A stretch of 32,000 nt of DNA, from contig NZ_CP060715.1 in assembly GCF_014396165.1 (NCBI RefSeq), positions 90,001-122,000 on the forward strand. Reading direction: 5' to 3'. Positions 15,062-30,759 of the stretch are shown one piece after another. Numbering within the stretch: position 1 is the stretch's first letter; each line of letters opens with the position of its first letter. Position numbers and translations under genes: made by a program. The notes under the pieces were generated by a model. That model did not search any database. It was not told the DNA's origin and saw nothing but the letters and a program-made list of their open reading frames with translations. This stretch comes from Erysipelothrix inopinata. GTDB lineage: Bacteria; Bacillota_I; Bacilli_A; Erysipelotrichales; Erysipelotrichaceae.

Positions 15062-16280
15062 CTAATTCTCCTTGTTGTTTGTAATTTCGAACATATTTTT
15101 TCGTTGCTGGTAAATAAATACAGATTACGATTATCGCCAATATAATTTCAAATAGTAGTGTTTTCAAATCACCACCAGTACCGATGAGTCCCTTGATTCC
15201 AAACGGAATAAACCATGGAACTGCATAGATATATGGTTTCATTAGTCCAATAGAGGTTAAGAAATACGCCAGGGTGCTGGTTACCATAGGTGCCAAAATA
15301 AATGCCATTTTGAAGTCATCATTCATAATAATCGGAATTCCAAAAATTAACGGCTCATTAATATTAAATACTGAAGATACACTTGCATTATCAAGAACAT
15401 CGATTCGTTTCTCTTTTCTTACAAGATAATAACTGAGTAAGAGCCCACCGGTTAACCCAGCACCACTCACAGCAACAAAATTTGTATAGAATGTCGCATT
15501 AATAATAAACCGTGCTTCATAGCCATTTGCATGTGCATGCATGTTAAATAATGTTGCTAAAATAATTGCTGGTTCAAACAGTGCAGAAATGAGTGCGTCA
15601 CCGTGCATTCCTTGATACCAAAAATGTTGCATCATAAATACAAATATAAGAAATACGACTGGATACTGGTAAAGTTTAAACACCCCTTCGAAAAGTATTC
15701 GATGCATTGGGGTAATCACATCAATACCTACCGCTTTAATCACGATAACGATTAAGAAAACAACCAATAATCCAAAGCATAAGTTAAGAATACTTTTTAA
15801 ACTTGAAATTATTGAGGTAGGTATTTGTTTACGCGTTCCTTTAAATAAGTAAGAATTAATTCTTTCTATGCCCTGATAAATTAGTACTGATACGACAGGT
15901 AATACTATCGCTCCAGCAAGTGTTTCTATTTTCAAAAACGCTTGAAAATCGCGATCAGATTGATAGATAATTCCAGTCCATAAGCAGAGACTCATCATAA
16001 TAATATGAATCGTCTCAAACTTATATGCCTGTGCACAATAGTATCCAACAGATATAACTGTTAGAAACGGTAAGAGTGCCATAAAGCCGTTTAGGATTGT
16101 TTTCGGTTCCCACCCTTGCATCCACGACACGCCCATAAAACTTGTTGATACGTTTTGGAATATCATGAGGAGGGACAATCCAAAAAGAATCGTTAGGAGG
16201 GTACTTGCGTAGTTGTGAATCGCATTGATGATTCGAACTTCTTTGAGTTTATATAAAACTTTTTCGATATCTGATAACAT
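15042..16280 (-). CDS. PTS EIIC component, lactose/cellobiose (type 3) family
   Basis: Polytopic protein. FNINEPLIFGIPIIMNDDF...VPWFIPFGIKG matches the ChbC/CelB motif QINEPILFGLPIIMNP...APWTMP. No EIIB or EIIA gene is present in the operon. Confidence 0.85.
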   Translation of the reverse strand: MLSDIEKVLYKLKEVRIINAIHNYASTLLTILFGLSLLMIFQNVSTSFMGVSWMQGWEPKTILNGFMALLPFLTVISVGYYCAQAYKFETIHIIMMSLCLWTGIIYQSDRDFQAFLKIETLAGAIVLPVVSVLIYQGIERINSYLFKGTRKQIPTSIISSLKSILNLCFGLLVVFLIVIVIKAVGIDVITPMHRILFEGVFKLYQYPVVFLIFVFMMQHFWYQGMHGDALISALFEPAIILATLFNMHAHANGYEARFIINATFYTNFVAVSGAGLTGGLLLSYYLVRKEKRIDVLDNASVSSVFNINEPLIFGIPIIMNDDFKMAFILAPMVTSTLAYFLTSIGLMKPYIYAVPWFIPFGIKGLIGTGGDLKTLLFEIILAIIVICIYLPATKKYVRNYKQQGELDGKSNL

Positions 16281-17605
16281 TATCGAAGTTCAGGCCAGTA
16301 CCCTCTATTAGCTTCAATGAGTGCATCTAGCACTTGTTTTGCAACTAACATAGAAGGTACCGTTTGGTTCAATGTGAATGCTTGTAATGCTTTAAGATAT
16401 GATTGTTCAAAGAAGGCATCAACCCATAATTTTTCTGAAGCTACTTGCGCTTCCATTAATCCTTTATGGAAATCACAAATAGGTGTTGCAAGACGAATTG
16501 GTTCAACACCTTTTGAACTCACATATGCAGGCACTTCTACTACTGCATCTGCTCTTAAGTTCATAATTGCACCTTGATTTACAACGATTAGATTAAATCG
16601 TTTATTGAGGTCTTGATGCAACGATACCGCAATATCAATAATATATTGTCCATGAATTTCATTCTCCATATTATATGATTTCAAATCTTCCTCTGATTGA
16701 GACTCAATCGCTTCATAGAATCGTTGCATGTATTGATCTCGGCCATCCATGACATAATTAGCACGAGTATAGTTCTTATTTGCTTTCGCTACTTTTTCAT
16801 CACCCATTAGGTAATACTCGAGGTAATTATTAGGAATGCTATCTGGGAAGTATGAAATCATTCGACCCAAATTCACGTAAGTTTCTTTCCAGCTGTCATC
16901 ACCTTCATTGAGCCAAACACCGTCTTTGAGTGCACGCTCAATAATATCTGGAAGGACATCTCTATCTTCATGTTTATCATAAATAGAACGGAACCAACCA
17001 AAGTGATTCAAACCATAATATTCAGGTACCCATGCGTCATGATCATATTCATATATATCCGCCAATGTTTTACTGATGCTAATCGCCATATCACAGGCAT
17101 TAATAATTTTTGCTTCAGGATAGGCGCGTCGTACTGCTTCAGAAATTATTGTTTCGGGGTTTGTGTAGTTTAAGATCCATGCATTTGGAGCATAGCGAAT
17201 ACACTCACCAACTAAATCAAGAAATTGATTCATTGAGCGCATGCCATACGCAAATCCACCAACACCACACGTTTCTTGACCTACGAGACCAAACTCTAAT
17301 GGAATTTTTTCATCAAGTTCACGCATTTTTAATCCACCTGCACGAATTTGTGAAAAAATATAATCGACTCCTGTAAAGGCAACTTCTGGATCCGTTGTTT
17401 CAACAATCACTGTATCTTTTCCTGCCTTTTTCAGTAAGTAATCGACAATAACATAGGTACGATGATTTTTAGATTCTGATATATCATACAAACGAATTTC
17501 TTTAACAGGAAATTGTTCTTTCACTGTCAACATAGCTTGGATAATTCCAGGTGTATAAGTACTCCCTGCACCAGCTATACAAATAACTATTGGTTCTGTT
17601 TTCAT
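16280..17605 (-). CDS. GH4 6-phospho-glycosidase, closest by eye to 6-phospho-alpha-glucosidase (GlvA/MalH type)
   Basis: IAGAGSTYTPGII, IRAGGLKMRELDEKIPLEFGLVGQETCGVGGFAYGMRS, NACDMA (GlvA ICDMP), YGLNHFGW, TRANYVMD, and a C-terminal YWPELR (GlvA YWPELH). Confidence 0.85.
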   Translation of the reverse strand: MKTEPIVICIAGAGSTYTPGIIQAMLTVKEQFPVKEIRLYDISESKNHRTYVIVDYLLKKAGKDTVIVETTDPEVAFTGVDYIFSQIRAGGLKMRELDEKIPLEFGLVGQETCGVGGFAYGMRSMNQFLDLVGECIRYAPNAWILNYTNPETIISEAVRRAYPEAKIINACDMAISISKTLADIYEYDHDAWVPEYYGLNHFGWFRSIYDKHEDRDVLPDIIERALKDGVWLNEGDDSWKETYVNLGRMISYFPDSIPNNYLEYYLMGDEKVAKANKNYTRANYVMDGRDQYMQRFYEAIESQSEEDLKSYNMENEIHGQYIIDIAVSLHQDLNKRFNLIVVNQGAIMNLRADAVVEVPAYVSSKGVEPIRLATPICDFHKGLMEAQVASEKLWVDAFFEQSYLKALQAFTLNQTVPSMLVAKQVLDALIEANRGYWPELR

Positions 17606-17712: not shown

Positions 17713-18621
17713 ATGAACCAGTTACATTACGAATTACACTACTTCAAAAATCCCAACTATCCGATTATTTTTCATTTTAATACGCTTTACAAGCATCATT
17801 CAGAGATTGTAGCGCATTGGCATGCAAACATTGAATTGTTGTATATCGTATCTGGTAAAGCTATCGTAGTCATTGATGATGAAACAGTTATCGCTCAACG
17901 TGGCGAGATTGTAATCATCAATTCTAATTCAATACATAGTGTTCAAAGTGAAACGGATGAGGTTGTATATTTTTGTTTAATCATGGACTCAACATTCTGT
18001 CGAAGCCTAAACTTTGATACAGTTAACTGCCGTTTTCACAATTTAACGAATGACTTAGAAATGCGAAATATTTTTCAAATTATCGCGAATGAAAGTCAAC
18101 AAGCTAAGCCATATTACCAAAAGGCAGTACGCGCATTATGTAATACCATGTTGATTCTTCTTTATCGTAATCAACTCATTGAATCCAGTGTTCAATCAGA
18201 ACCAATATCCGATCGCATGATCATAATTAAACAATCCATCGAATACATTCATCATAATTACAATCGCGATATTTCTCTCGATGAAATCAGTTCTGAAGTT
18301 GGGATCAGCAAGTTCTACTTCTGCCGCATTTTTAAGGAAGTAACTGGGATTACTCCAAATAATTATATTTTCCAAGTCCGATGCAACCAAGCCCATCAAT
18401 TACTGTCAGAGACAGATATCAGTATTGCGGAATGTGGTGAAGAATGTGGATTTAACTCGACTGCTTATTTCGCGAAATGCTTTAAATCGGTCTTTGGTTT
18501 CCCACCATCTCATATTCATCGTCATAAGGAAAATAGTGACTACCATAGTAAACGTGAAGCACTGCCACGACGAACTGTTTTTTCCACAAACAATGGTCAA
18601 TCTGAACCCGTTCCACTATAA
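17713..18621 (+). CDS. AraC-family transcriptional regulator (cupin sensor + HTH)
   Basis: Start at the ATG at 17713 after AGGAGG (17703-17708). N-terminal cupin (HWHANIELLYIVSG) and C-terminal AraC HTH (ISLDEISSEVGISKFYFCRIFKEVTGITPNNYIFQVRCNQAHQLL...GFNSTAYFAKCFKSVFGFPP). Divergent from the GH4-EIIC-ChbG operon, like ChbR in E. coli. Confidence 0.85.
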   Translation: MNQLHYELHYFKNPNYPIIFHFNTLYKHHSEIVAHWHANIELLYIVSGKAIVVIDDETVIAQRGEIVIINSNSIHSVQSETDEVVYFCLIMDSTFCRSLNFDTVNCRFHNLTNDLEMRNIFQIIANESQQAKPYYQKAVRALCNTMLILLYRNQLIESSVQSEPISDRMIIIKQSIEYIHHNYNRDISLDEISSEVGISKFYFCRIFKEVTGITPNNYIFQVRCNQAHQLLSETDISIAECGEECGFNSTAYFAKCFKSVFGFPPSHIHRHKENSDYHSKREALPRRTVFSTNNGQSEPVPL

Positions 18622-19923
18622 TTCCGATTCAAACGCTTCTTCAATTTCTTGAAGAAGTGTTTTATTTTGGAACACATATATTGCTGTTGTAGCAAGTACT
18701 TCTCCTGCTTTGATAATGCCTTTATGAGCTACATTTGATTTCCCATTATCTACCCATTGCCATGAATGCATTGGTGTATCAAAAGGTTCACAAGCAATGA
18801 ATAATTGTGCCGTTGGCACACACCAACTCACATCACCCACATCTGTTGAAACATAATCTTGATAGTGATATCGTGCATCTCTAATCTGAGTGTCAAAATA
18901 TAAATTTGTAGGATCATGACAATATTTTTCAAGATGAAGTTTATCGCTATCGTCTAATTCAATTTGTTTAGCACTTCGCATCACAGTTTCTAATGTTTGC
19001 GAGAGTGGAATACTTGCATTTAAATCGCGACACGATGCATCGACCTCAAACTTCATCTCAGTTTGCGTCATCAGTGCAGCGCCTTTCGCAATATCTTGAA
19101 CGCGATTGCACAATGATTCTACCTCATTCTTATTTTTGCCCCGAATAAAGTAATGAAGCTGTGCTTCTTTTTGTACAACATTAGCCGATGTTCCTCCTGC
19201 ATTTAAGTATGCATAATGGATTCGGGCTTCCATTGACATATGCTCTCGAAGGTAATTAACACCTACATTCATAAGCTCGCAAGCATCGAGTGCTGAGCGT
19301 CCTTTTTCAGGTGCTCCTGCAGCGTGGCTCGCAATACCAGCAAAGGAAATCGTTACTGTCTTTACTGCAAGTGTACGCTCAACCCATGCTTGTGTGAATG
19401 CGTTAGGATGCCACGTCAATATTATTGTAGCGTCGTTAAAAACTCCGGCCTCAGCCATGATGTTTTTAGCATAACCACTCTCTTCAGCAGGACAACCATA
19501 GACTTTAACTTGATAATCGAAACCATGATTCAGACAATAGTCTTTAAAAAGAAGTGCTGCATGAATCACACCAGTTCCTAAAAGATTATGACCACAAGCA
19601 TGGCCTGGTTCCTCTGATGTTACTTCTTGATAGCACTGAGACGGCTGGCCCATACCTGATAACGCATCATATTCTGCGAGATATCCTACAACAGGACCCA
19701 TATCACCCCATGAGGCCACAAATGCACAATCAATATTTGCACTGTTTCTTTCAATTTCAAACCCGTGTGACTCAAGATAATCACAGATTAGGTTTGTTGA
19801 TAGGGGAGTAGCAAACTTAACTTCAGCAAACTCCCAAATTTTATCAGCAATCTTAAATACATCACTTTTATATTTATCTGAGTATGACATTATTTCATTA
19901 AGTATTTTTTCTATTTTCTGCAT
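18616..19923 (-). CDS. M20-family amidohydrolase (AbgB-like)
   Basis: Metal and catalytic motifs HACGHNLLG and GCPAEESG. The length and N-terminal region resemble p-aminobenzoyl-glutamate hydrolase subunit B-type enzymes. Last gene of the long operon. Confidence 0.8.
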   Translation of the reverse strand: MQKIEKILNEIMSYSDKYKSDVFKIADKIWEFAEVKFATPLSTNLICDYLESHGFEIERNSANIDCAFVASWGDMGPVVGYLAEYDALSGMGQPSQCYQEVTSEEPGHACGHNLLGTGVIHAALLFKDYCLNHGFDYQVKVYGCPAEESGYAKNIMAEAGVFNDATIILTWHPNAFTQAWVERTLAVKTVTISFAGIASHAAGAPEKGRSALDACELMNVGVNYLREHMSMEARIHYAYLNAGGTSANVVQKEAQLHYFIRGKNKNEVESLCNRVQDIAKGAALMTQTEMKFEVDASCRDLNASIPLSQTLETVMRSAKQIELDDSDKLHLEKYCHDPTNLYFDTQIRDARYHYQDYVSTDVGDVSWCVPTAQLFIACEPFDTPMHSWQWVDNGKSNVAHKGIIKAGEVLATTAIYVFQNKTLLQEIEEAFESEL

Positions 19924-19932
19924 AACTCACCT

Positions 19933-20793
19933 CTAGCTTAGTTTCTCTAGTGCTTCAGTTCTCATGTCATTAATTTGATCTAAAGCTTTCATGATGCGTC
20001 CGGTTGTATCCAACGAAACAGGTGTTGTGTCGCTTTCAATTGCTTCACATAGCACATGAATGAGTCCCTCATACAGAGATTCATTCAATGCAAATTCTCG
20101 ATTATCCAATCTAATTTTGAAGTTTGGGTCTCCAACTTTGATCCAACGAATTTTAAAAGGTTTATTCGATACGGTTCCATACAAGTATTCTTCATCATCT
20201 GTTATTTCCAATCTTTCAATCTTAACTTCAGATGATAAAACAAACACCATTTCAAGACAGTGAATGCCGTACCAGTGGTATTCTGGTATCTCGTCAACAA
20301 AAGTAAGCGGTCCTTCAATTTCTATTGAATCCGCAAGATCAAAGTGAGCGTATGCATGAGTCATGAAGCTTGCAAATCTTAAAGTCGACGACGAGTATAC
20401 GCGTAAGTCTTTATCTTTTGTTAACTGACAAATTCGCTTGAAATCGTTATAGCTATAAGCTATCGGTTTATCAATAAAAATAGGTTTGTGTGTTTCTGGT
20501 AAATTATTTAATAAATCATAATGCGTTTCAGCATCCCCAGCAAGAATCCACCAAGCATCCACACCCTCTAAATCCATCTTATTAGTCACACGAATATCTT
20601 TGGGTAATGATTCTAATATTTGTGATCTTCGATTATTGTAGAATTGGCGAGTGCCACGTTGATCATCCACGACTCCCGCAATTTCAAACCGCCTACGAAA
20701 ACGGTTATCATGAATGATATATTCAACGAATGCCGACACATGAGATGTATCGGCACCGACAATCCCTATTCTATAGGGTCTTTTTGTTTGCAT
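19933..20793 (-). CDS. Gfo/Idh/MocA-family oxidoreductase (short form, 286 aa)
   Basis: N-terminal Rossmann YRIGIVGADTSH and FIDKPIA (a variant of the EKP motif). The start overlaps the upstream gene by 23 nt. Confidence 0.7.
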   Translation of the reverse strand: MQTKRPYRIGIVGADTSHVSAFVEYIIHDNRFRRRFEIAGVVDDQRGTRQFYNNRRSQILESLPKDIRVTNKMDLEGVDAWWILAGDAETHYDLLNNLPETHKPIFIDKPIAYSYNDFKRICQLTKDKDLRVYSSSTLRFASFMTHAYAHFDLADSIEIEGPLTFVDEIPEYHWYGIHCLEMVFVLSSEVKIERLEITDDEEYLYGTVSNKPFKIRWIKVGDPNFKIRLDNREFALNESLYEGLIHVLCEAIESDTTPVSLDTTGRIMKALDQINDMRTEALEKLS

Positions 20794-21841
20794 AACTGTT
20801 CCATAAGTCGCGGTTAGACATTACAAAGGCATCGTCGTTTAATGTCGGATATAAAGCATATACTTCATCAATATATTCTGACTGCCCTTCACTTAGACAT
20901 TCCTTGTCAAGTAAACACCAATTGCCTTTGAGCAGTCCTTGACGTGCTAACACTTCATTAATACCTGCAATACATCCTTTGAATCCATTTCGAACATCAA
21001 AGAATGCTGCATTCGCATCTGTAACATGAGTGCCAAGAGTTAAAAGTGATTCGATATTTTCATGTGTTTCTCGTGCATTTTGGATTTGATTAAAAAGTTC
21101 GACTGATGTTTTTGTCCAAACAGACCAATGTCCCAATAATCCACCCACAATACGTTTCGTTACCTGTTTTCCATCAATATCTAAGGAATAATCTGTCAAT
21201 AAATCAGGAACAATATTATCATCATTTCCAGTATAAACTGCAATTTCATCACATCGTTTCGACATCATTACAGCTTTCATGACATCAAGGGATTGATAGC
21301 GATTGAATGGGGCTATCTTAACTGCAACAACGCCATCAATGTTCATAAATTCTTTCCAAAATTCAAAAGAAAGAATACGACCTCCTGCAGAGGGCTGAAG
21401 ATAAAAACCTATCACAGGAATTATTTTTGCTACTTCACGAGCACGTTCAAGTAGCTGTTTCTCCGTATAATCTGGGAGATGGCCCATACTCAATAACGAT
21501 GCACAATATCCAAGTTTCTTAGAAATCTTCGCTTCACGGCATGCTTGATCTGTTGGCCCCGCTAACCCTGAAATCAGTAAAAAAGGACGCTCAAGTTTTC
21601 GTTTTGACACTTCTTCACTTGCAAGTGTCAATACTTTTTCATACAGGTTAAATTTTGGATCACGGATTTCAAATTGTGTTGTATGCACACCCACCGCAAT
21701 TCCCCCCACACCAGCATCGATGTAATAATGTGTCAATGCCCGTTGTGATAATTCGTCTAAACTTTTGTCTTCATTTAAGGCTAAAGGATGTGCCGGTATT
21801 ACGGTTCCTTTAAAGAGTAAATCGTGTTGATCTTGATTCAT
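20771..21841 (-). CDS. Dihydrodipicolinate-synthase-family (class I aldolase-like TIM-barrel) protein, function unknown
   Basis: GVGGIAVGVHTTQFEIRD and VVAVKIAPF resemble the DapA/NAL-family glycine-rich and Schiff-base-lysine regions. At 356 aa it is longer than DapA. The call is by eye. Confidence 0.6.
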   Translation of the reverse strand: MNQDQHDLLFKGTVIPAHPLALNEDKSLDELSQRALTHYYIDAGVGGIAVGVHTTQFEIRDPKFNLYEKVLTLASEEVSKRKLERPFLLISGLAGPTDQACREAKISKKLGYCASLLSMGHLPDYTEKQLLERAREVAKIIPVIGFYLQPSAGGRILSFEFWKEFMNIDGVVAVKIAPFNRYQSLDVMKAVMMSKRCDEIAVYTGNDDNIVPDLLTDYSLDIDGKQVTKRIVGGLLGHWSVWTKTSVELFNQIQNARETHENIESLLTLGTHVTDANAAFFDVRNGFKGCIAGINEVLARQGLLKGNWCLLDKECLSEGQSEYIDEVYALYPTLNDDAFVMSNRDLWNSYANKKTL

Positions 21842-22861
21842 TTAATACTTACCTTCTCTTTCTTGGAAGTGAGTTGGCTTGTCAATCATCGAACCATCAA
21901 GTTCAATCCACGTTGCAATAGTGTCGATCATTTCTCGAATACTTGTTTGAGGATATCCAAACAATTCATGAGATTTTGATGCATTGCTGAGAAGTGCATT
22001 TTCAGATTCCTCACCAACAATCGTAACTGCTTTTCCAAAACGTTCTGCAAAGCGCTCCGCAATCCAGCGTACAGATAAAGTTTCTGGTCCTGTAATGTTA
22101 ATTACATTAGCAGGTACTGTTGTGTGCAATAAACTTCTGATTGCCATTTCACTTGCATCGGGTTGCCAAATAACATTGACTTGACCCATTGTGACATCAA
22201 CAGGTCGATCATTATAAACATCTTTCGCAATTTCCACGAGCACGCCATAACGAACATCGATGGCATAGTTCAAGCGATAAATAGCCATAGGTGTTTTATT
22301 CTCTTTTGAGAAATGTTCGAAAATTCGTTCACGTCCAAGACATGATTGAGCATATTCTCCAATTGCTTCAGGCATTTGTTCTTCTGAAGGTGCTGCATAC
22401 TTTACGTTTACGAGAGGATAAACACACCCTGTAGAGAACACAACAATATTGGAGTCCTTAAATGTTTCTGCGATACGTCCGGGTAAATAACTATTAAGTG
22501 CCCAAGTATATGATTCATTACCCGTGCTACCAAATTTATATCCCACCATAAATATGACATTCTTAACATGAGGGAGTGATTTTAATGATTCATCATTCAT
22601 AAAATCAGCCACAAGTGTTTGGACTCCGATAGCTTCGAGAGCATCACGTGACTGATTACCATCAGAGAATCGTGCAACACCGTAAACCTTATTCTTAATA
22701 CCCGCTTTATTTAATGCATCCATCAATAAAGCAGCTAAGTTATAGCCAATTTTTCCACTGACACCAAGGATAATAATATCACCGTCAATGTGCTTCACAT
22801 CTTCAACAAGAGCTGAAGAAGCTGTATTCATTTTTTTCTCTATTTCATTCAATATCGTCAT
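21842..22861 (-). CDS. Extended-SDR (NAD-dependent epimerase/dehydratase fold) protein
   Basis: GVSGKIG dinucleotide motif and FSTGCVY. The active-site region reads EYAQSC where YxxxK is expected. TAA-ATG junction with the next gene. Confidence 0.75.
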   Translation of the reverse strand: MTILNEIEKKMNTASSALVEDVKHIDGDIIILGVSGKIGYNLAALLMDALNKAGIKNKVYGVARFSDGNQSRDALEAIGVQTLVADFMNDESLKSLPHVKNVIFMVGYKFGSTGNESYTWALNSYLPGRIAETFKDSNIVVFSTGCVYPLVNVKYAAPSEEQMPEAIGEYAQSCLGRERIFEHFSKENKTPMAIYRLNYAIDVRYGVLVEIAKDVYNDRPVDVTMGQVNVIWQPDASEMAIRSLLHTTVPANVINITGPETLSVRWIAERFAERFGKAVTIVGEESENALLSNASKSHELFGYPQTSIREMIDTIATWIELDGSMIDKPTHFQEREGKY

Positions 22862-23892
22862 ACTTTTTCCTCTTCTAGATCCTGATTCTTACCGTAAGTA
22901 AAACAATGTGTTAAATACGATGCACCTCTTTCAGAGAGCGTTCTATAAACTTCAGGATATGTTTCAATCGGAGTTGGCATATCGTAATATGCGTCTACTT
23001 TTATACGTTTTGCTTCTAAAAGTCGTATAAACTCCCCAACATTACGGCCCTCAGTCCAACGAACATATCCGTATGGATAATCTACGGCATCTTTTTCATA
23101 AGATGTGTTGTAACGTCCAGGTCCACCAGCTCTTGAAATACGAATATCAATTTCTTTAACAAACATTTTTTCTCTACTATAATTTGGTTGTATATCTCCA
23201 ACAATAACTGATTTGCCACGATCGCATAGCCAATCAATACTCTTGTCTGTTAAGTAGCTTGCGCCACTTCCCGCACATAGAAATACTGCATCAGCACCTT
23301 TACCACCACTCGCAAGCATCAAGTCCTTTTCAAGTTCATCTTCATCTGAGTATGTTTTAAGACCTGATACTTCGTGAAGTAACTCAGCACGTGAAGCTGA
23401 TCGGTTTAGTGCAAATACTACAAGTCCTGCGTTATGAGCAATCTGCGCAATAAGTTGCCCATATATTCCAAGTCCGACAACAACACAGATTTCGCCAAAA
23501 CGAAGATTTCCTTGACGCAATCCGTGAATTGCGATAGCACCCAATCCACCTAAAGAGGCGTCCTTAAGTGACACGCTTTCTGGAACTTTCACAGCGAGAG
23601 TTTTCGGTACAAGTAACTGCGAACGGTGTCCCACATAGGGTGCACCATAAACTGAAACTCGATCTCCAACTTTAAAATCATCAGCGCCATTACCCACAGA
23701 ATTTACGATTCCTGAGGCAGAATACCCAAGACGAACCACTTCTTCTTGAGAACCTTGACTCATCGTATTTTCTGTTCCTGGGCTTACAGCCGAATATGAG
23801 ACATCAACAAGGATATAGTTATCAATAACTGATAAATCCTCAGATTCGTATATTTTAATTTGCCCATTTTGGGCTCCTAAATAGTTCATCAT
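22858..23892 (-). CDS. MDR-superfamily (alcohol-dehydrogenase-fold) oxidoreductase lacking obvious zinc ligands
   Basis: GroES-like N-terminal domain plus Rossmann VVVGLGIYGQL. The positions of the catalytic-zinc Cys and His read AVSPGTE and LGYSASG instead of GICGSD and GHEASG. Confidence 0.75.
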   Translation of the reverse strand: MMNYLGAQNGQIKIYESEDLSVIDNYILVDVSYSAVSPGTENTMSQGSQEEVVRLGYSASGIVNSVGNGADDFKVGDRVSVYGAPYVGHRSQLLVPKTLAVKVPESVSLKDASLGGLGAIAIHGLRQGNLRFGEICVVVGLGIYGQLIAQIAHNAGLVVFALNRSASRAELLHEVSGLKTYSDEDELEKDLMLASGGKGADAVFLCAGSGASYLTDKSIDWLCDRGKSVIVGDIQPNYSREKMFVKEIDIRISRAGGPGRYNTSYEKDAVDYPYGYVRWTEGRNVGEFIRLLEAKRIKVDAYYDMPTPIETYPEVYRTLSERGASYLTHCFTYGKNQDLEEEKV

Positions 23893-23897
23893 AATTG

Positions 23898-24716
23898 TTA
23901 TTTAATACCTGTAAAGGCAATTCCTTTCGTAAAGTATTTTTGGAAAAATAGGAAGATCAAGAATGTCGGTATAAATGAAATAAATGCTCCTGCCATTTCA
24001 ATTCCAAAGTGTCCTTCTTTCGTAAGGAGTGATGCAAGTCCAACGGTAATAGGATACATATCATTACTTGTTGTGAAAATTAATGGAGTTAGAAAATCGT
24101 TCCACGAAGAAATGAATGCGAATGTACCCACTGTTGCGATAACGGGTTTTGATAGTGGAAGCATAATTGTAAAGAATATTTTTAAATCTCCTGCACCATC
24201 AATTTTTGCGGATTCTTCAAGAGAAGCCGGAATTTGTTGCATAAACTGTTTGACGAGGAACACACCCATTATTGACCAAACAAGTGGAATAATAAGTGCA
24301 GCACGCGTATTAACCCATCCAATCTCCGAGAACATAATATATCGAGGGATAATTAAAACTTGGGTAGGTATCATAACCACTGCCATCATCGTCCAAAAGA
24401 GTATATCTTTTCCCCAAAAATCTTTTCGTGCAAAGATATAACCTAAGACTGCAGCAAAGAACATTTGCAAGACTGTAGGGATTACAGAAACCACGATGGA
24501 ATTCCACATCCATGTTAGAATTGGTGAATATTTAAAAATATGTTGGAAATTCTTAATCGTGAGATCATGGGTAAATATCCATGTTAACGGATTACCTACA
24601 GGAACTTTTGCATCTACAAATGCACCAACAACCATTATTAGAAACGGCACCAGGAATGTAATTCCTAACAGAGTTAGAATTAATCCTTTTATAATTTTTA
24701 CTTTCTTATCGCTCAT
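23898..24716 (-). CDS. Carbohydrate ABC transporter permease (MalG-like)
   Basis: 6-TM protein with the EAA loop EESAKIDGAGDLKIFFTIMLPLSKP. Confidence 0.9.
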   Translation of the reverse strand: MSDKKVKIIKGLILTLLGITFLVPFLIMVVGAFVDAKVPVGNPLTWIFTHDLTIKNFQHIFKYSPILTWMWNSIVVSVIPTVLQMFFAAVLGYIFARKDFWGKDILFWTMMAVVMIPTQVLIIPRYIMFSEIGWVNTRAALIIPLVWSIMGVFLVKQFMQQIPASLEESAKIDGAGDLKIFFTIMLPLSKPVIATVGTFAFISSWNDFLTPLIFTTSNDMYPITVGLASLLTKEGHFGIEMAGAFISFIPTFLIFLFFQKYFTKGIAFTGIK

Positions 24717-24725
24717 AATTGCCTC

Positions 24726-25691
24726 CTAATTATAGTCAACTTGTTTTCCAAGGTAACGTTTCTGAATCATCGATACAGCGAAGATAAAGAAGAATAAGAC
24801 ATACGCTAATACACTTGCGTAACCAAAGTCATATGCTGTGAATCCCTGTTGATACATATAGTAAACAATAGTGTTTGTTGCATAGTTTGGGCCACCTTTT
24901 GTTAATAAGAACGCAGAATCGAAAATTTGAAATGATCCGATTGTTGTGGTAATCGCCACATACAAATGAATTGGCATTAAGAGTGGCATCGTAATTTTAA
25001 AGAAAGTTTTAAAGCGACCCGACCCATCAATTTTCGCTGCTTCATATACATCGTCAGGAATACCTTGTAATCCAGCATAGTAATAAATCATTGTATTTCC
25101 TACAACCTTATAGATTGAAAGTCCCGCAAGCACCATAAGTGCTTGACTGGAACTTGATAGAAAGAGTTGTTCTTGGATTCCGAAGAGTGCTAGGAATTGG
25201 TTAACAAAACCTTCAGCATTTCCTCGGAACATCCAAGCCCAAATCCCGGATATAACAACAAATGAAGTTACAACTGGAAGAAAGAAGACTCCTTTAAACA
25301 GTGTCGCCCAACGACGTTTTAGAGAATGAATTAATGTTGCGAATAGAAGTCCTAATGCCATCGTTGGTAAAATATAAAGTACTGAGAACATGATCGTATT
25401 CCAAACGGATTTCCATGCATTTGGGTCATTGAAGAACCGTTTCCAGTTATCAAGTGCAATAAATTCTGGTTTTCCTACGATTGGATAGTCCATGAATGTA
25501 ATCACAAAACTAAATACAATCGGACCGACGTAGAAAAATATAAAGTGCCCTAGAATCGGAACTAAAAACAAGTAAACTAATGAGTGCTTCTTGACATGTT
25601 TCTTTGCTCTTTCAAAAAACGACGGTTTCTTAGTTTCTTTTGGTAAGCTCGACCCTGTGAGTCCACGTTCAAGCGTGTTATTTTCTTCCAT
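24726..25691 (-). CDS. Carbohydrate ABC transporter permease (MalF-like)
   Basis: EAA loop YEAAKIDGSGRFKTFFKITMPLLMP. Start moved to the ATG at 25691 (GAGG 7 nt upstream) rather than the GTG at 25703. Confidence 0.9.
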   Translation of the reverse strand: MEENNTLERGLTGSSLPKETKKPSFFERAKKHVKKHSLVYLFLVPILGHFIFFYVGPIVFSFVITFMDYPIVGKPEFIALDNWKRFFNDPNAWKSVWNTIMFSVLYILPTMALGLLFATLIHSLKRRWATLFKGVFFLPVVTSFVVISGIWAWMFRGNAEGFVNQFLALFGIQEQLFLSSSSQALMVLAGLSIYKVVGNTMIYYYAGLQGIPDDVYEAAKIDGSGRFKTFFKITMPLLMPIHLYVAITTTIGSFQIFDSAFLLTKGGPNYATNTIVYYMYQQGFTAYDFGYASVLAYVLFFFIFAVSMIQKRYLGKQVDYN

Positions 25692-25712
25692 GTTAAACCT
25701 CACATTTCTAAT

Positions 25713-26954
25713 CTATTTAAGATAAGTTTTAATTGCTTCAGCAGATTTTGTTGCTGCTTCTTGTGGTGTAATTGAACCTTCTAACATTGCTTGTACAATT
25801 GCTTGTACATCTGGCATGAATACACGAGCTTGAGAGTTGATAACACCAGGACGTGCAATCTTAGTAAACTCTGCCATTTGTTTCATTTCTGGATTGTTAT
25901 CATAAATTGATAATGCTGCTTCACGTGCAGGAATAAATCCAGTAACCGTGTTGAATTCTTTCATGTTTTCTTCGTTAGTCATCACTTTGAGGAACTCAAC
26001 TGCTTTTTCTTTATTTGCTGATCCATTCGATACAACGAAAGCTCCAGTAGTACCAAATGTTGTTTCTACTTCTTCTTTCAATGGTGAACCAATTACAAAC
26101 TCAACATTGTTTTCTTTAGCTGATGCAATGAGATTATTTGCAGCCCACGCAGCCATTACTTTACCTTCTAAGAATAAAGGTGCTGAGTCTTCAACTGTGA
26201 TTGAATCTTTTGAGATGAATCCATCTTTGTACCATTGATTAATTTGAGTAAATGCTTTAACTGATTTTTCATTATCAATGAAAACTTCATTCTTATCATT
26301 TGCGATATCACCACCTGCTTGCCAGATTAGTGGGTATAGTGAAGAGTTAAGTGTATTACCACCATCGTATGTACGTGCGTAGTAACCTTTCTCTACAGCT
26401 TTTTTACCAAGTTCATTAAACTCTGCCCATGTCTTCGGTAAGTTATTAACATCAGCTCCAATTTCTTCTAGAATTTTCTTATTATAGAATAGTGATTGTG
26501 ATTCGCGTAAGATTGGTAATCCGTATAATTTATCTTTATATTTTACAGCTTGAATACTCGTATCTGAGAAACCTTCAAGATCTTTAGCAGGAACCATGTC
26601 ATCAATACTTGCAATTAAATCTTTATCCGCAAATTGAGTTACTTGGTCAGGAATTAAGTAAAAAATATCAGGTCCTTGTTTTGCAGCAAGTGTCGTTGTA
26701 AGTTTTTGTTCACGGTTTGCCCAAGGAATTTCTTCAAATGTTACGGTTGCATTTGGATTAGTCTTTTTGAACTCTTCAGTCATTTTTGCATAGACTGCTT
26801 CAATTTCTGATTTCTTTTCAGCACCAACGTAAGGGTGAACCCATACTGTTAAATTTACAGCTTCGTTTGATGTTGCTCCTTTTTTACTGCCACATCCGAC
26901 AAGTGTCAGTAATACTAACGCGACCAACATGGATCGCTTGAAAATCTTAGTCAT
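25713..26954 (-). CDS. Extracellular solute-binding lipoprotein (family 1, CUT1-type)
   Basis: Signal peptide plus lipobox LLTLVGC-GSKK, typical SBP_bac_1-like length (413 aa), and a strong GGAGGA RBS. Confidence 0.9.
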   Translation of the reverse strand: MTKIFKRSMLVALVLLTLVGCGSKKGATSNEAVNLTVWVHPYVGAEKKSEIEAVYAKMTEEFKKTNPNATVTFEEIPWANREQKLTTTLAAKQGPDIFYLIPDQVTQFADKDLIASIDDMVPAKDLEGFSDTSIQAVKYKDKLYGLPILRESQSLFYNKKILEEIGADVNNLPKTWAEFNELGKKAVEKGYYARTYDGGNTLNSSLYPLIWQAGGDIANDKNEVFIDNEKSVKAFTQINQWYKDGFISKDSITVEDSAPLFLEGKVMAAWAANNLIASAKENNVEFVIGSPLKEEVETTFGTTGAFVVSNGSANKEKAVEFLKVMTNEENMKEFNTVTGFIPAREAALSIYDNNPEMKQMAEFTKIARPGVINSQARVFMPDVQAIVQAMLEGSITPQEAATKSAEAIKTYLK

Positions 26955-27329
26955 GCTATATCCTCCTTATATTTCGAAAGCATGCTTGTTTCTATCTGAA
27001 ACAAAGATATTTGATAAGAACTCATGTTTTATTGGAATAATTCTAAACACTGCGTGATTTTGAATCTGTATCAAGGTAGTATTATGAGTGATTGCGATTC
27101 AAAAAATGTTAGAGAATTGATTTCTTGAGGTCATCATTTTGACTAAAACTAGGGCCTTATCACAATTTATATTTAAATTGTCATCAATTTTGCAGAAGTA
27201 TCTACTTCTTAATCCTGTATATCTGCTTCCTCCTTGAATACGCTTCCATTATATCTTTTTTGGTAGGTTTCTAATATTACCTAAATTGCCAAGAATCATA
27301 AAAATATTGCCATCAGAGATTAAATACCT

Positions 27330-27354
27330 AAAAAAAGGCTGATTTCTCAGCCTT
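27330..27354 (-). terminator. Rho-independent terminator of the surface-protein gene
   Basis: Minus strand AAGGCTGA-gaaa-TCAGCCTT followed by T7, 5 nt after the stop codon. Confidence 0.85.
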
Positions 27355-27359
27355 TTCTA

Positions 27360-30329
27360 TCATTCTTTCTTAAATTTCTTGATATTTAGGATTGTGAATC
27401 CAAGCACAATTACACCAATTCCAAGATAGAGTAAATTATTGTTTTGATAAATACCTGTTGCAGGTAATCCTTCTGATTCTGTTTTATTGTCAGTTTCTGG
27501 ATTTACAGGAACAGATGGTTCAATTGGTTCGACAGGATCCACCGGTTCAATTGGGTCTACAGGATCAATCGGGTCTACTGGATCCACTGGATCAATTGGA
27601 TCTACCGGATCGACTGGATCAATTGGTTTTTCCTTTAGCTTTAGACAACTCACTGAATCATTCAGTAAATCAAGTTGCGATTGGATCATTTCTTGAGTGA
27701 CTCGCTTTTCAAATGATTCAAGTGATATTCCGGTGATCATTTCTGCTTCTTGTTTTTCCAACAGACTTAACAGTTCAGAAGTAACTTTAATTTGTTTTTC
27801 TAAGTTTGCCACTGATTCATCGGTGTACTTCGTCGTATCCACTTCCATCGCATGTTTTAATGCATCGTTTATGTACGCAGTTTTACCTTTAATAACTTGA
27901 TGTTCTGATGTGAGTTTTACTGCGTCATAATATGCTCCACTCGTTTGGAAGTAGTTTGATGAACCAAAAGTTACATTTGTATAAACAGCTCCTTCGGGTG
28001 CAATCCCGGAAACGGTTATCTCATTCCATTTTCCATAATCACTACGAATATGTTTTAATGTTTCACCCTCAATATCTTTGCCAACCTGTTTACCACTTTC
28101 ATCAAAGAAACGAATGAACACAGTGTTTTGTCCATCAGTTAAATATTGTTGGACACTAGCCGTGTATTTTACACCTGAGTGTACCGGAATATTATCCGAC
28201 TTTACAAACACAGTTTCTTTATCAGATTGATCAACAATCTTAAGACTGTGCTCGCCTTCATAGGCACGTTCTGTTGTTACTTCAAATGAGACGTTCGCAG
28301 TAACTGCTTCAAAGAGTGATGACCACCCTGGAATTGTAGGATGATTTCCTGATAATTCACGTTTATTATCCATGTCTTCAAACCCACCATTTTTTAGTGG
28401 TTGAATTACTTGTGCATTGATAATTTCATCATTTTCTTCTAATGGGTCCACGTCAACAATTCGGATTTTTTCGATGTCATTTGGAGCATTTTGTAAGATA
28501 TAAATTGCTTGTTTTCCTTCAGCATCTTTGCTGAGTGTCATAAAGTCTACTTCTTTATCTGTAAGAATACGTGTGTGTTTCCAATCTTCTGTACTTGGAT
28601 CAACAACTGTCATTCTTCCAGCTAAGTCAGTATATAACAATCCATCTTCACCAAATTCAATATGAACCGGGCGCCACATCCCACGATTTTTTACGTCTGG
28701 GTAAATATCTTTATGCTTAGTAAATGACATTGTTTCTGGATCCATAGTAAACAGCACACCGTCTACCGCTCCCCATAGTTGTCCAGACTCATCAAATGTA
28801 AGTCCACTGATCATAGGTGTCTTTTGAATCTCTGGGAATGGAATTTCAATTTCTTTTACTTTTTCTTGTTTTTCAATATCCCAAACAAATATCACAGGTT
28901 TGCTTGCCATATCATCTGCTGATGCATCCAAACCACCTCTAATAGTGGTGGAGCCAAAGATTAAATTACCACGTTTTGCAAGCCCAACAATACTTTGGTT
29001 TTGAACAACGTTACGGTGAACTTCTTTTTCTTTTGTTTCGGGATTATAGAGTGCGAGTACGCCTCCTAATTCTTTATAATAAGGAATCGTTCCCATCATC
29101 AATAATCCATCTTGATAATCCATAATGTAGGGACGATCTTGAACATATTCATCTTTTAGATTAAATAATGTCTTAGATTCCAGTGTTTGTGTATCAAACT
29201 CTTGAATGATTGCCCCACTATAGAGTCCAAAATACATCTTATTTCCTTCACCAGCAGTCATTCCTTCAGCTTGCATTTGATTAAAGATATTTTTAGTATT
29301 GGTCTTTAGATTAACTTGCATCCCTTTAGGACCGCCTGGATAGGAGGATACATAAAGATTTCCATCATTATCTTTGCCTAAATTATGAAGCAACACCGGT
29401 GTTCCTTTTAATATGTTTTCTGTTTCATGATATTTACCGGTATCAAGATTAAAATGTGCTACATCTCCAAGTCGTTTTAGTGATACAAATTCTAAGCCTT
29501 CTTTAGATTGATACACAGCACCTCCACGGTGACCTAAGAATGATCCACCTACTGGTTTTGCTTCAAGTGTTTCAAGATCTACTTCATGTAATTTACGCTC
29601 ATATGTAACGTAGGTCTTGTTGTTATGAACTGCAAGTTGATCCCAACCGAACGCACCAAAATCATCAGGTCCCCCGTCATGTTTTTTCTTTAATGTTTTC
29701 TCTTCCCATTTTTCTTCAATGAGATTATAGAAGAGAATCGCCCCTTCGCCATTATCGTCAAAACGTGCCACGAGATAGTTTTCTGCCACTCCCATATTGT
29801 AGACATGGTTTAGATTTTCTTTATCATTAGGTTTATCAATGATATCATAAGCATTTTTAGTGATATCTTCTTTTTCACCTGTCACAGCATTCATTTTGAT
29901 AACACGAGAGCGTACTCCCGTGCCAAGATAAACATAACCATCATGATACGCAATCGAGCGAACGTACCCTGTTTCATTACCTTCAGTGGCTTTACCCATG
30001 TTTTTAAATGTCCCAAGCTCAACATCGTATTTAACAACACTACCTTCGTGTTCTTTATGAGTACCGATATAAACATTTCCTACATCATCCGTTGTAATTG
30101 ACCAGAATTGATGTCCAGGCATCGGTGTTCCTAAAAGTTCAACATTCTTCTCATTAGGTTTATATCGATAGAGTTGACCATCGTTATTAGGGCCTAATGC
30201 TGCAATATAGACATTCCCTTGTGCATCCGCTGTATGTCCCCAAGATTGTGATACTCCTGGCATTAACTGTGAATACACAAGTGTGTTTGATTCAACATCC
30301 AGAGCATTAAAATATCCACCATTCGTCAT
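27360..30329 (-). CDS. LPXTG-anchored surface protein body: beta-propeller repeats + CBM/galactose-binding-like domain + helical stalk + P-x-D/E spacer
   Basis: The C-terminus has LPATG, a hydrophobic helix and KKFKKE (sortase signal). Before it come 12 P-[IV]-[DE] triplets. The N-terminal ~640 aa carry recurring blade motifs (GNVYIAALG, GNVYIGTH, GYVYLGTG, GNLYVSSYPGG, GQLWGAVDG, GLLYTDLAG). NGGFEDMD...GWSS...EGEHSLKI resembles CBM4_9-type modules. The frame is actually open up to 30467, with no signal peptide in this frame. Confidence 0.85.
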   Translation of the reverse strand: MTNGGYFNALDVESNTLVYSQLMPGVSQSWGHTADAQGNVYIAALGPNNDGQLYRYKPNEKNVELLGTPMPGHQFWSITTDDVGNVYIGTHKEHEGSVVKYDVELGTFKNMGKATEGNETGYVRSIAYHDGYVYLGTGVRSRVIKMNAVTGEKEDITKNAYDIIDKPNDKENLNHVYNMGVAENYLVARFDDNGEGAILFYNLIEEKWEEKTLKKKHDGGPDDFGAFGWDQLAVHNNKTYVTYERKLHEVDLETLEAKPVGGSFLGHRGGAVYQSKEGLEFVSLKRLGDVAHFNLDTGKYHETENILKGTPVLLHNLGKDNDGNLYVSSYPGGPKGMQVNLKTNTKNIFNQMQAEGMTAGEGNKMYFGLYSGAIIQEFDTQTLESKTLFNLKDEYVQDRPYIMDYQDGLLMMGTIPYYKELGGVLALYNPETKEKEVHRNVVQNQSIVGLAKRGNLIFGSTTIRGGLDASADDMASKPVIFVWDIEKQEKVKEIEIPFPEIQKTPMISGLTFDESGQLWGAVDGVLFTMDPETMSFTKHKDIYPDVKNRGMWRPVHIEFGEDGLLYTDLAGRMTVVDPSTEDWKHTRILTDKEVDFMTLSKDAEGKQAIYILQNAPNDIEKIRIVDVDPLEENDEIINAQVIQPLKNGGFEDMDNKRELSGNHPTIPGWSSLFEAVTANVSFEVTTERAYEGEHSLKIVDQSDKETVFVKSDNIPVHSGVKYTASVQQYLTDGQNTVFIRFFDESGKQVGKDIEGETLKHIRSDYGKWNEITVSGIAPEGAVYTNVTFGSSNYFQTSGAYYDAVKLTSEHQVIKGKTAYINDALKHAMEVDTTKYTDESVANLEKQIKVTSELLSLLEKQEAEMITGISLESFEKRVTQEMIQSQLDLLNDSVSCLKLKEKPIDPVDPVDPIDPVDPVDPIDPVDPIEPVDPVEPIEPSVPVNPETDNKTESEGLPATGIYQNNNLLYLGIGVIVLGFTILNIKKFKKE
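27517..27626 (-). repeat. Tandem 9-nt (higher-order 27-nt) repeat encoding (P-[IV]-[DE]) x12
   Basis: Plus strand shows iterated GGWTCNAYNGG units (ggttcaatt ggttcgaca ggatccacc ggttcaatt gggtctaca ggatcaatc gggtctact ggatccact ggatcaatt ggatctacc ggatcgact ggatcaatt). Confidence 0.9.
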
Positions 30330-30394
30330 TGAATATGCATATAATTTGCCATTATATTCCGCAAATGTAGCGCTTATTACACTTGTTACTGTAT

Positions 30395-30565
30395 CTATTT
30401 GATTTCCGGTAGCTTCTGGTTCATAAAACCCCGGCCACTCAATACAGCATCTGGTTTTTCTGTTTCCTCAGAATCAGCATGAATTGTAGCGGTTGGTATT
30501 GTAGAAACAAACGCCATAAATAAAGCTAAAATTGATATGCTAAAAGATTTGATAAATCGAGTCAT
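30395..30565 (-). CDS. Signal-peptide-bearing N-terminal fragment (56 aa) of the surface protein, out of frame with the body
   Basis: AAGGAGA RBS, then MTRFIKSFSISILALFMAFVSTIPTATIHA/DSEETEKPDAVLSGRGFMNQKLPEIK*: a classic Sec signal with an AXA-like cleavage site. It overlaps the open upstream part of the 989-aa ORF frame (open to 30467). Confidence 0.7.
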   Translation of the reverse strand: MTRFIKSFSISILALFMAFVSTIPTATIHADSEETEKPDAVLSGRGFMNQKLPEIK

Positions 30566-30727
30566 TTCTTTCTCCTTTTATAAGAAAATATGTTCACGCT
30601 AACATAGTTTCTGAATTACGGAAATTGTTCACTCATCTCAATTTCACTCAAAGCATATCATGTAGGCGCTTTCAATATTAGATAGAATATTGCGCAACTT
30701 TATTAAATTCTTGCACTTCAACCATAC

Positions 30728-30759
30728 AAAAAGTAGACTTCTTAACTTAAGAAGTCTAC
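30728..30759 (-). terminator. Rho-independent terminator
   Basis: Perfect 11-bp stem GTAGACTTCTT / AAGAAGTCTAC (30733-30759), followed on the minus strand by T5. Located 16 nt after the stop of the upstream gene. Confidence 0.85.

Follow-up and report, generated by a model that had tools for sequence, protein, structure and literature searches.

A conserved SDR-aldolase gene pair in an importer operon of Erysipelothrix inopinata and a tentative kinase-free route for amidated or N-acylated sugar acids

The stretch of DNA considered here, called the window, is 32,000 nucleotides of the Erysipelothrix inopinata genome (contig NZ_CP060715.1, positions 90,001 to 122,000), and our subject is an operon of eight minus-strand genes packed within its positions 18616-26954. 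Two adjoining genes of this operon are the part that recurs across bacteria. One encodes an atypical extended short-chain dehydrogenase/reductase (SDR) and the other an aldolase-like protein of the N-acetylneuraminate lyase/dihydrodipicolinate synthase (NAL/DHDPS) superfamily; together they form a two-gene core with lineage-specific shells around it. In the window, the shell consists of an ABC importer, two further oxidoreductases and an amidohydrolase. The operon as a whole may specify an inducible, kinase-free route in which an amidated or N-acylated sugar acid would be deacylated, trimmed by redox steps and split by the aldolase to pyruvate and a small aldehyde, the aldehyde then being reduced. 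We put this forward tentatively, as the reading we prefer and as possible, short of probable.

RESULTS

The eight genes, beginning with the first of the operon, are as follows.

25713-26954, minus strand: lipoprotein substrate-binding protein (SBP) of the CUT1 type, operon gene 1 (Pfam, lipobox)
24726-25691 (ATG; alternative GTG at 25703), minus strand: MalF/UgpA-like permease (BPD_transp_1; UgpA, 127 bits)
23898-24716, minus strand: MalG/UgpE-like permease (BPD_transp_1, 78.5 bits; GlcU, MalG and UgpE matches)
22858-23892, minus strand: zinc-ligand-less medium-chain dehydrogenase/reductase (MDR) (ADH_zinc_N and ADH_N)
21842-22861, minus strand: atypical extended SDR, half of the core pair (PF01370, 30.9 bits)
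20771-21841, minus strand: NAL/DHDPS-superfamily aldolase-like protein, half of the core pair (PF00701, 25.1 bits)
19933-20793, minus strand: short Gfo/Idh/MocA oxidoreductase, 286 aa (PF01408, 35.9 bits)
18616-19923, minus strand: AbgB-type M20 amidohydrolase, last gene (TIGR01891, 217.5 bits)

A preliminary description of the window had reported these genes and their junctions, and the listing of open reading frames with translations, together with our reading of the sequence, agrees with it. The family that it assigned to each of the eight survived HMM, PDB or structure checks. It had matched the set to no known pathway, and we fared no differently: NCBIfam equivalog scores all lay far under the cut-off, with none of the five enzymes reaching equivalog level in these curated models, and a search of the full-text literature (gene combinations, N-acetylglucosaminic and N-acetylmannosaminic acid, nonulosonic-acid catabolism) found no published characterisation of the gene set.

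One genome per species was scanned, and the SDR-aldolase module was present in at least 599 species genomes; at least 8000 proteins of the aldolase family passed the search, every one under a generic name. Counts out of 80 refer to the best 80 loci, obtained by tblastn and clustering, and single loci are cited by number (L001 and so on). The SDR gene adjoins the aldolase gene in 78 of the 80, directly upstream in nearly all, with gaps mostly of -4 to +30 nt and the two genes usually translationally coupled. These 80 loci come from Bacillota, Bacteroidota, Planctomycetota, Deinococcota, Acidobacteriota, Armatimonadota, Gemmatimonadota and Verrucomicrobiota. The pair additionally occurs in Streptomyces, Rhodococcus, Glaciihabitans, Sulfitobacter, Tistrella and Nitratireductor (Actinomycetota and Alphaproteobacteria).

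Co-occurrence of the MDR, SDR, DapA-like, Gfo and M20 genes across genomes had been singled out beforehand as the thing to check. It stands for the SDR and DapA-like genes but not for the others: the MDR gene is found in 8 of 80 loci, always with a CUT1 importer, short Gfo homologues in about 15 (L082, L083, L085, L094 and L095 also have them), MalF/G-type permeases in 16, the window-type SBP in 4, and the AbgB-type M20 gene in 4 at weak identity. The ABC importer, MDR and short Gfo genes constitute a Bacillota-only accessory set; a propeller surface protein, described below, also counts as accessory and has homologues in Bacteroidota as well.

This variability bears on whether the operon is a functional whole. 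Accessory genes differ greatly between lineages, the propeller gene next to the operon is frameshifted, and the window contains an IS element, all of which would suit an evolutionary mosaic, that is, an SDR-aldolase cassette beside an unrelated importer and peptidase in a locus that is perhaps decaying. We give such a mosaic very little credence, since L082 and L083 (Erysipelothrix urinaevulpis and a Logan contig) preserve the whole 11-gene layout, with proteins 50-87% identical. The order in both is the propeller gene, SBP-MalF-MalG-MDR-SDR-aldolase-shortGfo-(extra Gfo)-M20, a convergent AraC gene, and then GH4-EIIC-YdjC. The MDR-SDR-aldolase-shortGfo-M20 block recurs in the unrelated L095 with the same regulator and promoter block, and all eight window ORFs are intact, with coupled junctions.

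The aldolase-like protein was assigned to its superfamily by structure and by residues. Foldseek searches with its AlphaFold2 (AF2) model (pLDDT 93.5) returned NanA at the top (E about 1e-15, target-normalised TM 0.82, 15-19% identity), and the NanA and DHDPS matches together lay at E 1e-13 to 1e-15 and target-normalised TM 0.82-0.87, as expected of a NAL/DHDPS fold. NanA was also the best PDB match by sequence (E=6e-4). In a profile alignment, K175, Y147 and T54-T55 correspond to NanA K165, Y137 and S47-T48, and these residues are invariant in alignments of 16 and of 73 sequences. The fold and the aligned, invariant catalytic residues together mark the product of 20771-21841 as a genuine Schiff-base enzyme of the NAL superfamily, by prediction, and one that is neither NanA nor DapA. 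NanA equivalence was rejected on TIGR00683 (19.9 bits vs 382) and NF003164 (18.3 vs 281). A DapA function was likewise set aside; the Pfam score is 25.1 against a gathering threshold of 22.1, no NCBIfam DapA match is listed, and the gene lies in an importer operon.

NanA being the top match by phmmer, profile and Foldseek alike, a pathway for sialic-acid-like compounds (nonulosonic acids, KDN or Kdo) has to be weighed. There, a NAL-like lyase would yield pyruvate and an (N-acyl)hexosamine, the Gfo, MDR and SDR enzymes would oxidise this to an N-acyl-aminoaldonate, the M20 enzyme would deacylate it and, in other loci, a serine-dehydratase-type enzyme would deaminate it. CUT1 importers are known as sialic-acid carriers, which would fit. 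BNR_2 sialidase-like genes lie inside or beside the pair in L038, L055, L058 and L060 (the last with the order Nramp-BNR-SDR-aldolase), and GDSL and AXE1 esterases, NagA and NagB are found nearby in related loci. One paper (PMC8053191) reports nonulosonic acids as widespread in environmental microbes, which also fits. We nevertheless consider such a pathway unlikely: the NanA equivalog score is a small fraction of its cut-off, DHDPS scores nearly as well in the profile, and BNR genes are confined to 4 of 80 loci, while NanE, NanK and AGE are not among the 25 neighbour families listed for related loci. In addition, the serine dehydratase (Sda) of the related locus L095 passes the L-serine ammonia-lyase cut-offs, pointing to true L-serine rather than a six-carbon amino acid.

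Its partner, the SDR, keeps the Rossmann motif GxxGxxG (G33-x-x-G36-x-x-G39, invariant) and has an invariant S143 and Y170, with Y170-x-x-S-C174 in place of YxxxK; C174, at the Lys position, is conserved in at least 90% of family sequences. The SDR alone found nothing in a PDB sequence search at E<0.01, and a 23-sequence SDR profile reached no further than the reductase TerB, its closest solved relative, and an archaeal GalE, at E about 1e-9. A near-invariant arginine, R64, follows beta-strand 2 and is perhaps an NADP-type signature.

What accompanies the pair elsewhere is informative about what it may do. The attached transporters vary: CUT1 ABC, major facilitator superfamily (MFS), tripartite tricarboxylate transporter (TTT), TauT-like ABC and Nramp-family proteins all occur. 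Minimal loci consist of a transporter and the pair only, with carriers typical of small anions (TTT, MFS, TauT-like ABC). In 22 loci (L003-L071) an Nramp-family gene is directly upstream of the SDR gene. All 24 of the 24 Nramp-family copies lack the DPGN and MPH metal motifs and have GPGS or GPSK instead; going by these motifs, the pair-attached proteins probably carry an organic substrate rather than a metal.

The commonest enzymatic partner is an M20 amidohydrolase, present in about 21 of 80 loci and drawn from three non-orthologous subfamilies. That the M20 gene signals an amide-cleaving step had been proposed from the window alone, and the proposal is strengthened by this recurrence of three subfamilies beside the core pair and by their coupling to L-serine dehydratase. 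The window enzyme exceeds the TIGR01891 cut-off of 153.75 bits, has the metal-binding HACGH motif (GHACGHN) and matches HmrA in the PDB (3RAM, E=1.5e-38); its nearest named relatives, at 40-45% identity, are called 'aminobenzoyl-glutamate utilization protein B'. Orthologues at 45-50% identity are in the same cluster of L082, L083, L094 and L095 (45-48% for the homologues in L094 and L095). In 9 of 80 loci the aldolase gene is immediately followed by genes for the alpha and beta parts of an Fe-S L-serine dehydratase, and this enzyme follows the AbgB-type M20 gene in L094-L096. Locus L094 reads ABC-MDR-SDR ... M20-SdaAB-SdaAA. The fullest version of the pathway seen is L095 (4993-13458 of Logan SRR27593205), an unrelated contig in which a divergent AraC gene is followed by MDR-SDR-aldolase-shortGfo-M20-SdaAB-SdaAA-GlpK, and its Sda and GlpK exceed equivalog cut-offs (L-serine ammonia-lyase for Sda; 716 bits for GlpK). 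The coupling of Sda to M20 suggests that one of the products is L-serine or else a serine-like beta-hydroxy-alpha-amino acid. In L096 (7808-12026, Enterococcus saccharolyticus), an MFS gene, an AbgB-type M20 gene and SdaAB/AA stand alone, without the SDR-aldolase pair; judging from its gene content, this trio may be a module of its own for taking up and cleaving N-acyl-serine-like compounds.

With M20 as the commonest partner, the substrate could instead be, along the lines of the preliminary description, an opine-like, Amadori or otherwise modified amino acid, the M20 enzyme (with a GNAT acetyltransferase in some relatives) serving as a protect/deprotect pair. The 2-succinocysteine route of Bacillus subtilis YxeL/YxeP is a model for such a scheme, and YxeP is a weak PDB match of the window M20 protein. 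In its favour, the versions from Sulfitobacter, Tistrella and V. fluvialis include GNAT genes, genes for serine dehydratase or D-serine ammonia-lyase occur close by, and the transporter used in alphaproteobacteria is a TauT-like ABC. The wider context is carbohydrate heavy, however, with SusC/D polysaccharide utilization loci, Gfo proteins bearing a twin-arginine translocation (TAT) signal, DUF1080 proteins, NagA/B and the propeller protein with its carbohydrate-binding module (CBM). Neither an FrlB/FrlD-type deglycase or kinase nor an amadoriase or FAD opine oxidase was seen in the window or the annotated neighbours, and none of the 20 plasmid records with the aldolase is from Agrobacterium or Rhizobium, which leaves no Ti/Ri-type opine context. 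We see only a slim chance that modified amino acids are the substrate.

Other partners point toward the making or feeding of sugar acids. An enolase-superfamily enzyme accompanies the pair in 8 related loci, mostly TAT tagged: in L011, L030, L037, L044, L046 and L053 (Bacteroidota) it carries the TAT signal RRxFVK and lies about +1.1 kb after the aldolase gene, and the copies of Paenibacillus (L023) and Olivibacter (L071) are without the signal. A periplasmic enzyme of the enolase superfamily is unusual. Further recurrent neighbours are sGDH-cytochrome c, TAT-Gfo, GMC oxidases, DUF1080, an Amidohydro_2-family protein, CE15-like esterases, ceramidase-like amidases, heparinase II/III, BNR_2 sialidase-like proteins, NagA/NagB, MurQ and GNATs.

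Turning to the remaining proteins of the operon, the window holds the SBP and two MalF/MalG-type permeases of a CUT1 importer. The SBP matches SBP_bac_8 and SBP_bac_1 (Pfam, E about 1e-41) and has the lipobox LVGC; its closest PDB relatives, such as the sophorose binder Lin1841 and GacH, at E about 1e-18, are too weak for naming a ligand. The ATPase had been described as missing, and indeed the window encodes no MsmX-type ATPase; its sole ABC ATPase (2225-3109) is directly upstream of a different membrane-protein gene. The first 100 residues of the MDR protein contain no Cys, and a GHE motif is missing too, so that the ligands of zinc alcohol dehydrogenases are lacking; the top NCBIfam match of this protein, BchC at 46 bits, is far below the cut-off. 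In the Gfo protein, Pfam recognised the N-terminal domain only, with no C-terminal match in its 286 aa; the sequence reads DKP, a variant of the EKP motif, and a PDB sequence search gave nothing below E 0.1.

The Gfo gene had invited the idea of oxidative 3-keto-glycoside cleavage, in which the Gfo and MDR enzymes would oxidise C3, elimination would break the bond, and the aldolase and SDR would deal with the resulting aglycone or sugar fragment. As such a route would allow, glycoside hydrolases (GH) are missing from the window cluster, and elsewhere Gfo genes co-occur with xylose-isomerase-like TIM barrels, the DUF1080 '3-keto-disaccharide hydrolase' and an FAD oxidoreductase. In the window, no such lyase partner is present, neither xylose-isomerase-like nor DUF1080, and the idea was not sustained there. 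The short Gfo protein also has no recognisable C-terminal domain, and the universal element of these loci is the SDR-aldolase pair, not Gfo. Cleavage of this kind is, in our judgment, very unlikely.

Transcription and its control involve these further features.

17713-18621, plus strand: AraC/cupin regulator, convergent (HTH_18, HTH_AraC, Cupin_2, AraC_binding)
27235-27249, minus strand: cre-consensus site ATGGAAGCGTATTCA, overlapped by the -10 box TATAAT at 27248-27253 (consensus match)
27285-27310, minus strand: direct repeat GCAAT-N16-GCAAT (21-bp period), candidate AraC operator, abutting a poor -35 (conserved in relatives)
27333-27356, minus strand: intrinsic terminator hairpin and T-run closing the upstream propeller gene (perfect 10-bp inverted repeat)
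27360-30565, minus strand: LPXTG-anchored tandem beta-propeller and CBM-like surface protein (Reg_prop, CBM_4_9 and LPXTG matches)
30689-30714, minus strand: second repeat copy, GCAAK-N16-GCAAK, upstream of the propeller gene (pattern match)

That the eight genes form one operon, as had been supposed, is borne out by tight or overlapping junctions, an upstream terminator and a single leader. The aldolase-like and SDR genes abut (TAA to ATG, 21839-21844), the SDR and MDR genes share an ATGA overlap (22858-22861), and the Gfo and aldolase-like genes overlap by 23 nt (20771-20793). Gaps of 5 nt separate MalG from MDR and 9 nt each MalF from MalG and Gfo from M20. The SBP-MalF gap is 21 nt if MalF starts at ATG 25691 and 9 nt with GTG 25703; the ATG has a ribosome-binding site (RBS), and the same start (321 aa) is called in the identical public contig L001. 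Shine-Dalgarno-like sequences precede the SBP (AAGGAGGA), MalF, MalG, SDR, DapA-like and M20 genes and are weak for MDR and Gfo. From the terminator at 27333-27356 and the 405-bp leader ahead of the SBP gene, with its promoter-like region, the transcription unit extends over 26954-18616. Rfam found no riboswitch or leader RNA within the window.

The preliminary description had also stated that glycoside hydrolase, kinase, ATPase and regulator were all missing. This holds within 18616-26954, except that a regulator gene adjoins: the 3' end of the convergent AraC/cupin gene overlaps the M20 stop by 6 nt. It has an RBS and ATG at 17713, giving 302 aa as in L001. Orthologues with 75% identity occupy the same convergent position in L082 and L083, and others are divergently upstream of the cluster in Vagococcus fluvialis (46%) and L095 (44%), neither of which has the GH4 operon there. 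Judged by position and conservation, the protein is probably the regulator of the operon. Divergent from the AraC gene lies a chb-like operon (GH4 6-phospho-glycosidase, phosphotransferase system EIIC and YdjC/ChbG-type deacetylase; 14312-17605, minus strand). This operon shares synteny with the cluster in L082 and L083 and not in V. fluvialis or L095. That the AraC protein serves this GH4-EIIC-YdjC operon alone was considered and dropped: its orthologues flank the redox cluster where there is no GH4 operon, and the GH4-AraC spacer does not contain the repeat operator.

At the promoter, the repeat (as GCAA-N17-GCAA) is aligned and conserved in L082, L083 and L085, with a variant in L095. The cre site is the sole WTGNAANCGNWNNCW match in the 32-kb window, and the TATAATGnAAGCGTATnCAAG block containing TATAAT and cre recurs in L082, L083 and L095. 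With an adjacent conserved AraC gene, a repeat at the -35 and a cre site all in place, this is probably an AraC/XylS-type operon with CcpA/cre repression. After the second repeat copy, the one ahead of the propeller gene, come TAATAT and a cre-like site with one mismatch; this copy suggests that the propeller gene and the operon are one regulon. Another candidate operator, a 50-nt-spaced AAAWTGATGAC repeat in the leader, was abandoned as not conserved in relatives.

The AF2 model of the propeller protein (pLDDT 87) has tandem beta-propellers, a CBM-like sandwich, a helical region, a Pro-rich linker and the LPXTG anchor. Its top Foldseek matches are sensor domains of Bacteroides hybrid two-component systems (HTCS), such as BT4663, at TM 0.25-0.32. 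Homologues adjoin the core pair in L002, L004, L031, L034, L045, L083 and L093 (Bacillaceae, Paenibacillus and Bacteroidota). The copy in L034 (Paenibacillus) lacks a signal peptide and is one of the genes within the operon, which makes an enzymatic role possible. In the window, the gene reads GGGG at 30429-30432 vs GGGGG in the otherwise identical L001, leaving the signal peptide (ATG 30565) out of frame; this difference may reflect an error in sequencing, a phase-variable homopolymer or a recently formed pseudogene.

The rest of the window includes an IS3-type transposase pair at its left edge (an HTH ORF, then an rve integrase ORF, 19-1391, plus strand). What looks like another small sugar-phosphate locus, unrelated to the operon, lies at 4263-7633 and combines a Cof-type HAD phosphatase (4263-5102) with a second GH4 glycosidase (5102-6487) and a divergently oriented 7-bladed-propeller lactonase (6578-7633). 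Upstream of the propeller gene lies a gene for a 389-aa membrane-anchored protein with no Pfam match (30776-31945, minus strand), also present in L001 and followed by a hairpin at about 30727-30757.

DISCUSSION

The kinase-free sugar-acid route outlined at the outset builds on the structure of the operon, on folds and catalytic residues, on the conservation of regulator and operator, and on the pattern in which the genes co-occur. We imagine that the propeller surface protein captures, or possibly cleaves, an extracellular parent glycan and that the CUT1 ABC importer takes up a carbohydrate-derived acid or small glycoconjugate, its ATPase being encoded elsewhere. The AbgB-type M20 enzyme would cut an amide beside a free carboxylate, freeing a serine-like amino acid or an N-acyl group, and the zinc-less MDR and short Gfo enzymes would trim the sugar skeleton in NAD(P)-dependent redox steps. 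Lys175 of the NAL/DHDPS-like enzyme could then form a Schiff base with a 4-hydroxy-2-oxo (2-keto-3-deoxy) sugar acid and release pyruvate and a small aldehyde. The SDR would take the neighbouring step, most likely reduction of the aldehyde (glyceraldehyde to glycerol, as GlpK in L095 suggests); alternatively, it might make the keto-acid. Substrate induction is probably exerted by the AraC-type activator and catabolite repression by CcpA/cre. A route of this kind would account for the absence of a kinase from the operon, and the partners that could make or feed sugar acids (enolase-superfamily, sGDH-cytochrome c, TAT-Gfo, GMC, Amidohydro_2, CE15-like, heparinase II/III and BNR_2 proteins) speak for it.

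Several points weigh against this proposal. We infer every chemical step, the step order and the substrate class (an amidated or N-acylated uronic, aldonic or ulosonic acid). The NAL fold alone cannot separate an aldolase from the dehydratase and deaminase members of the superfamily, and the SDR family, with C174 in place of the catalytic Lys, makes classical redox chemistry uncertain. The window has no dehydratase, serine dehydratase or GlpK, and GlpK was seen in one locus only. The TAT signal on most of the enolase-type partners would put them in a compartment apart from the cytoplasmic pair, and the route does not explain the GNAT partners. GH88 and GH105 are not among the 25 listed neighbour families, which weakens the uronate version. 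Nor are UxaC/UxuAB, KduI/KduD and KdgK/KdgA among those families, and all of these, GH88/GH105 included, are absent from the window as well. Beyond this route and the four rivals weighed above, the remaining probability belongs to something else.

One can envision a bolder version, in which the SDR and the NAL-like aldolase are the terminal module of an unrecognised, very broad non-phosphorylative pathway that turns amidated or N-acylated sugar acids into pyruvate, glycerol and serine, the propeller protein belongs to a new glycan-cleaving or glycan-capturing family, and the Nramp-like proteins are new organic-acid carriers. Uronic acids with amide-linked serine, oxidised amino sugars and bacterial nonulosonic acids would be examples of its substrates. 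We regard this version, substrates included, as doubtful.

The superfamily of every protein here is already known, and so is the kind of locus, an inducible catabolic operon with an ABC importer. New are the widespread, uncharacterised SDR-aldolase module, its repeated coupling to M20 and serine dehydratase, and its unusual partners, the metal-motif-less Nramp-like carriers and the tandem-propeller proteins. Should the pair prove to be a kinase-free module from sugar acid to pyruvate, it would close gaps in the annotation of many bacteria from soil, the sea and animal hosts, explain recurrent oxidoreductase-rich loci without glycosidases and kinases, and point to unrecognised amide-decorated acidic glycans as nutrients. 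The conserved candidate AraC operator and the SBP provide experimental handles toward the ligand.

Known systems resemble parts of this locus. The HTCS sensors of Bacteroides (BT4663, BT4673, BT3049) have the tandem-propeller architecture and Reg_prop repeats in common with the window protein. Unlike them, the latter has no kinase or regulator module, is LPXTG anchored and carries a CBM-like sandwich, and the TM values given above are low for these sensors. E. coli AbgAB and the TIGR01891 aminoacylases (HmrA, YxeP and the PM20D2-type Xaa-Arg dipeptidase) are like the window M20 enzyme in the cut-off passed, in HACGH and in its AbgB-named relatives. In contrast to AbgAB, the window enzyme is about 40 residues shorter than a typical AbgB, has no AbgA partner or AbgT transporter, belongs to a sugar operon and has, in relatives, an L-serine dehydratase coupled to it.

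NanA, together with nan clusters that have CUT1 importers, offers the closest solved structures and sequences; the Lys, Tyr and Ser/Thr-Thr residues align, the importer type is shared, and some relatives' loci resemble nan clusters in their NagA/NagB or sialidase-like neighbours. The aldolase-like protein differs from NanA in its low identity and equivalog score and in about 50 extra residues, and the window differs from nan clusters in having neither NanE nor NanK and in a partner, the SDR, not known from them. The archaeal KDG aldolase of the non-phosphorylative Entner-Doudoroff (npED) pathway and the KDX aldolases YagE/YjhH of the Dahms pathway are NAL-superfamily enzymes that split unphosphorylated 2-keto-3-deoxy-aldonates to pyruvate and an aldehyde. 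An oxidoreductase, namely an aldehyde dehydrogenase, then handles the aldehyde in these pathways, whereas the window aldolase is paired with an extended SDR; KDG aldolase and YagE/YjhH were not among the 50 Foldseek matches listed for the window aldolase or among its PDB profile matches.

The dehydratase of the fungal reductive D-galacturonate route belongs to the enolase superfamily, which also supplies a partner of the pair in 8 related loci, and the GlpK of L095 is a further point of likeness. This route is eukaryotic and not organised as an operon, it includes a dehydratase where the window has none, and it offers no counterpart of the M20 enzyme, the serine dehydratase, the ABC importer or the propeller protein. 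As set out in two papers (PMC5488244; PMC6353982), it proceeds through a reductase, a dehydratase, an aldolase and a glyceraldehyde reductase to pyruvate and glycerol (GaaA/Gar1, GaaB/Lgd1, GaaC/Lga1 and GaaD/Gld1), and in being kinase-free and combining NAD(P)H reductases with a pyruvate-releasing 2-keto-3-deoxy-acid aldolase it resembles the route that we propose.

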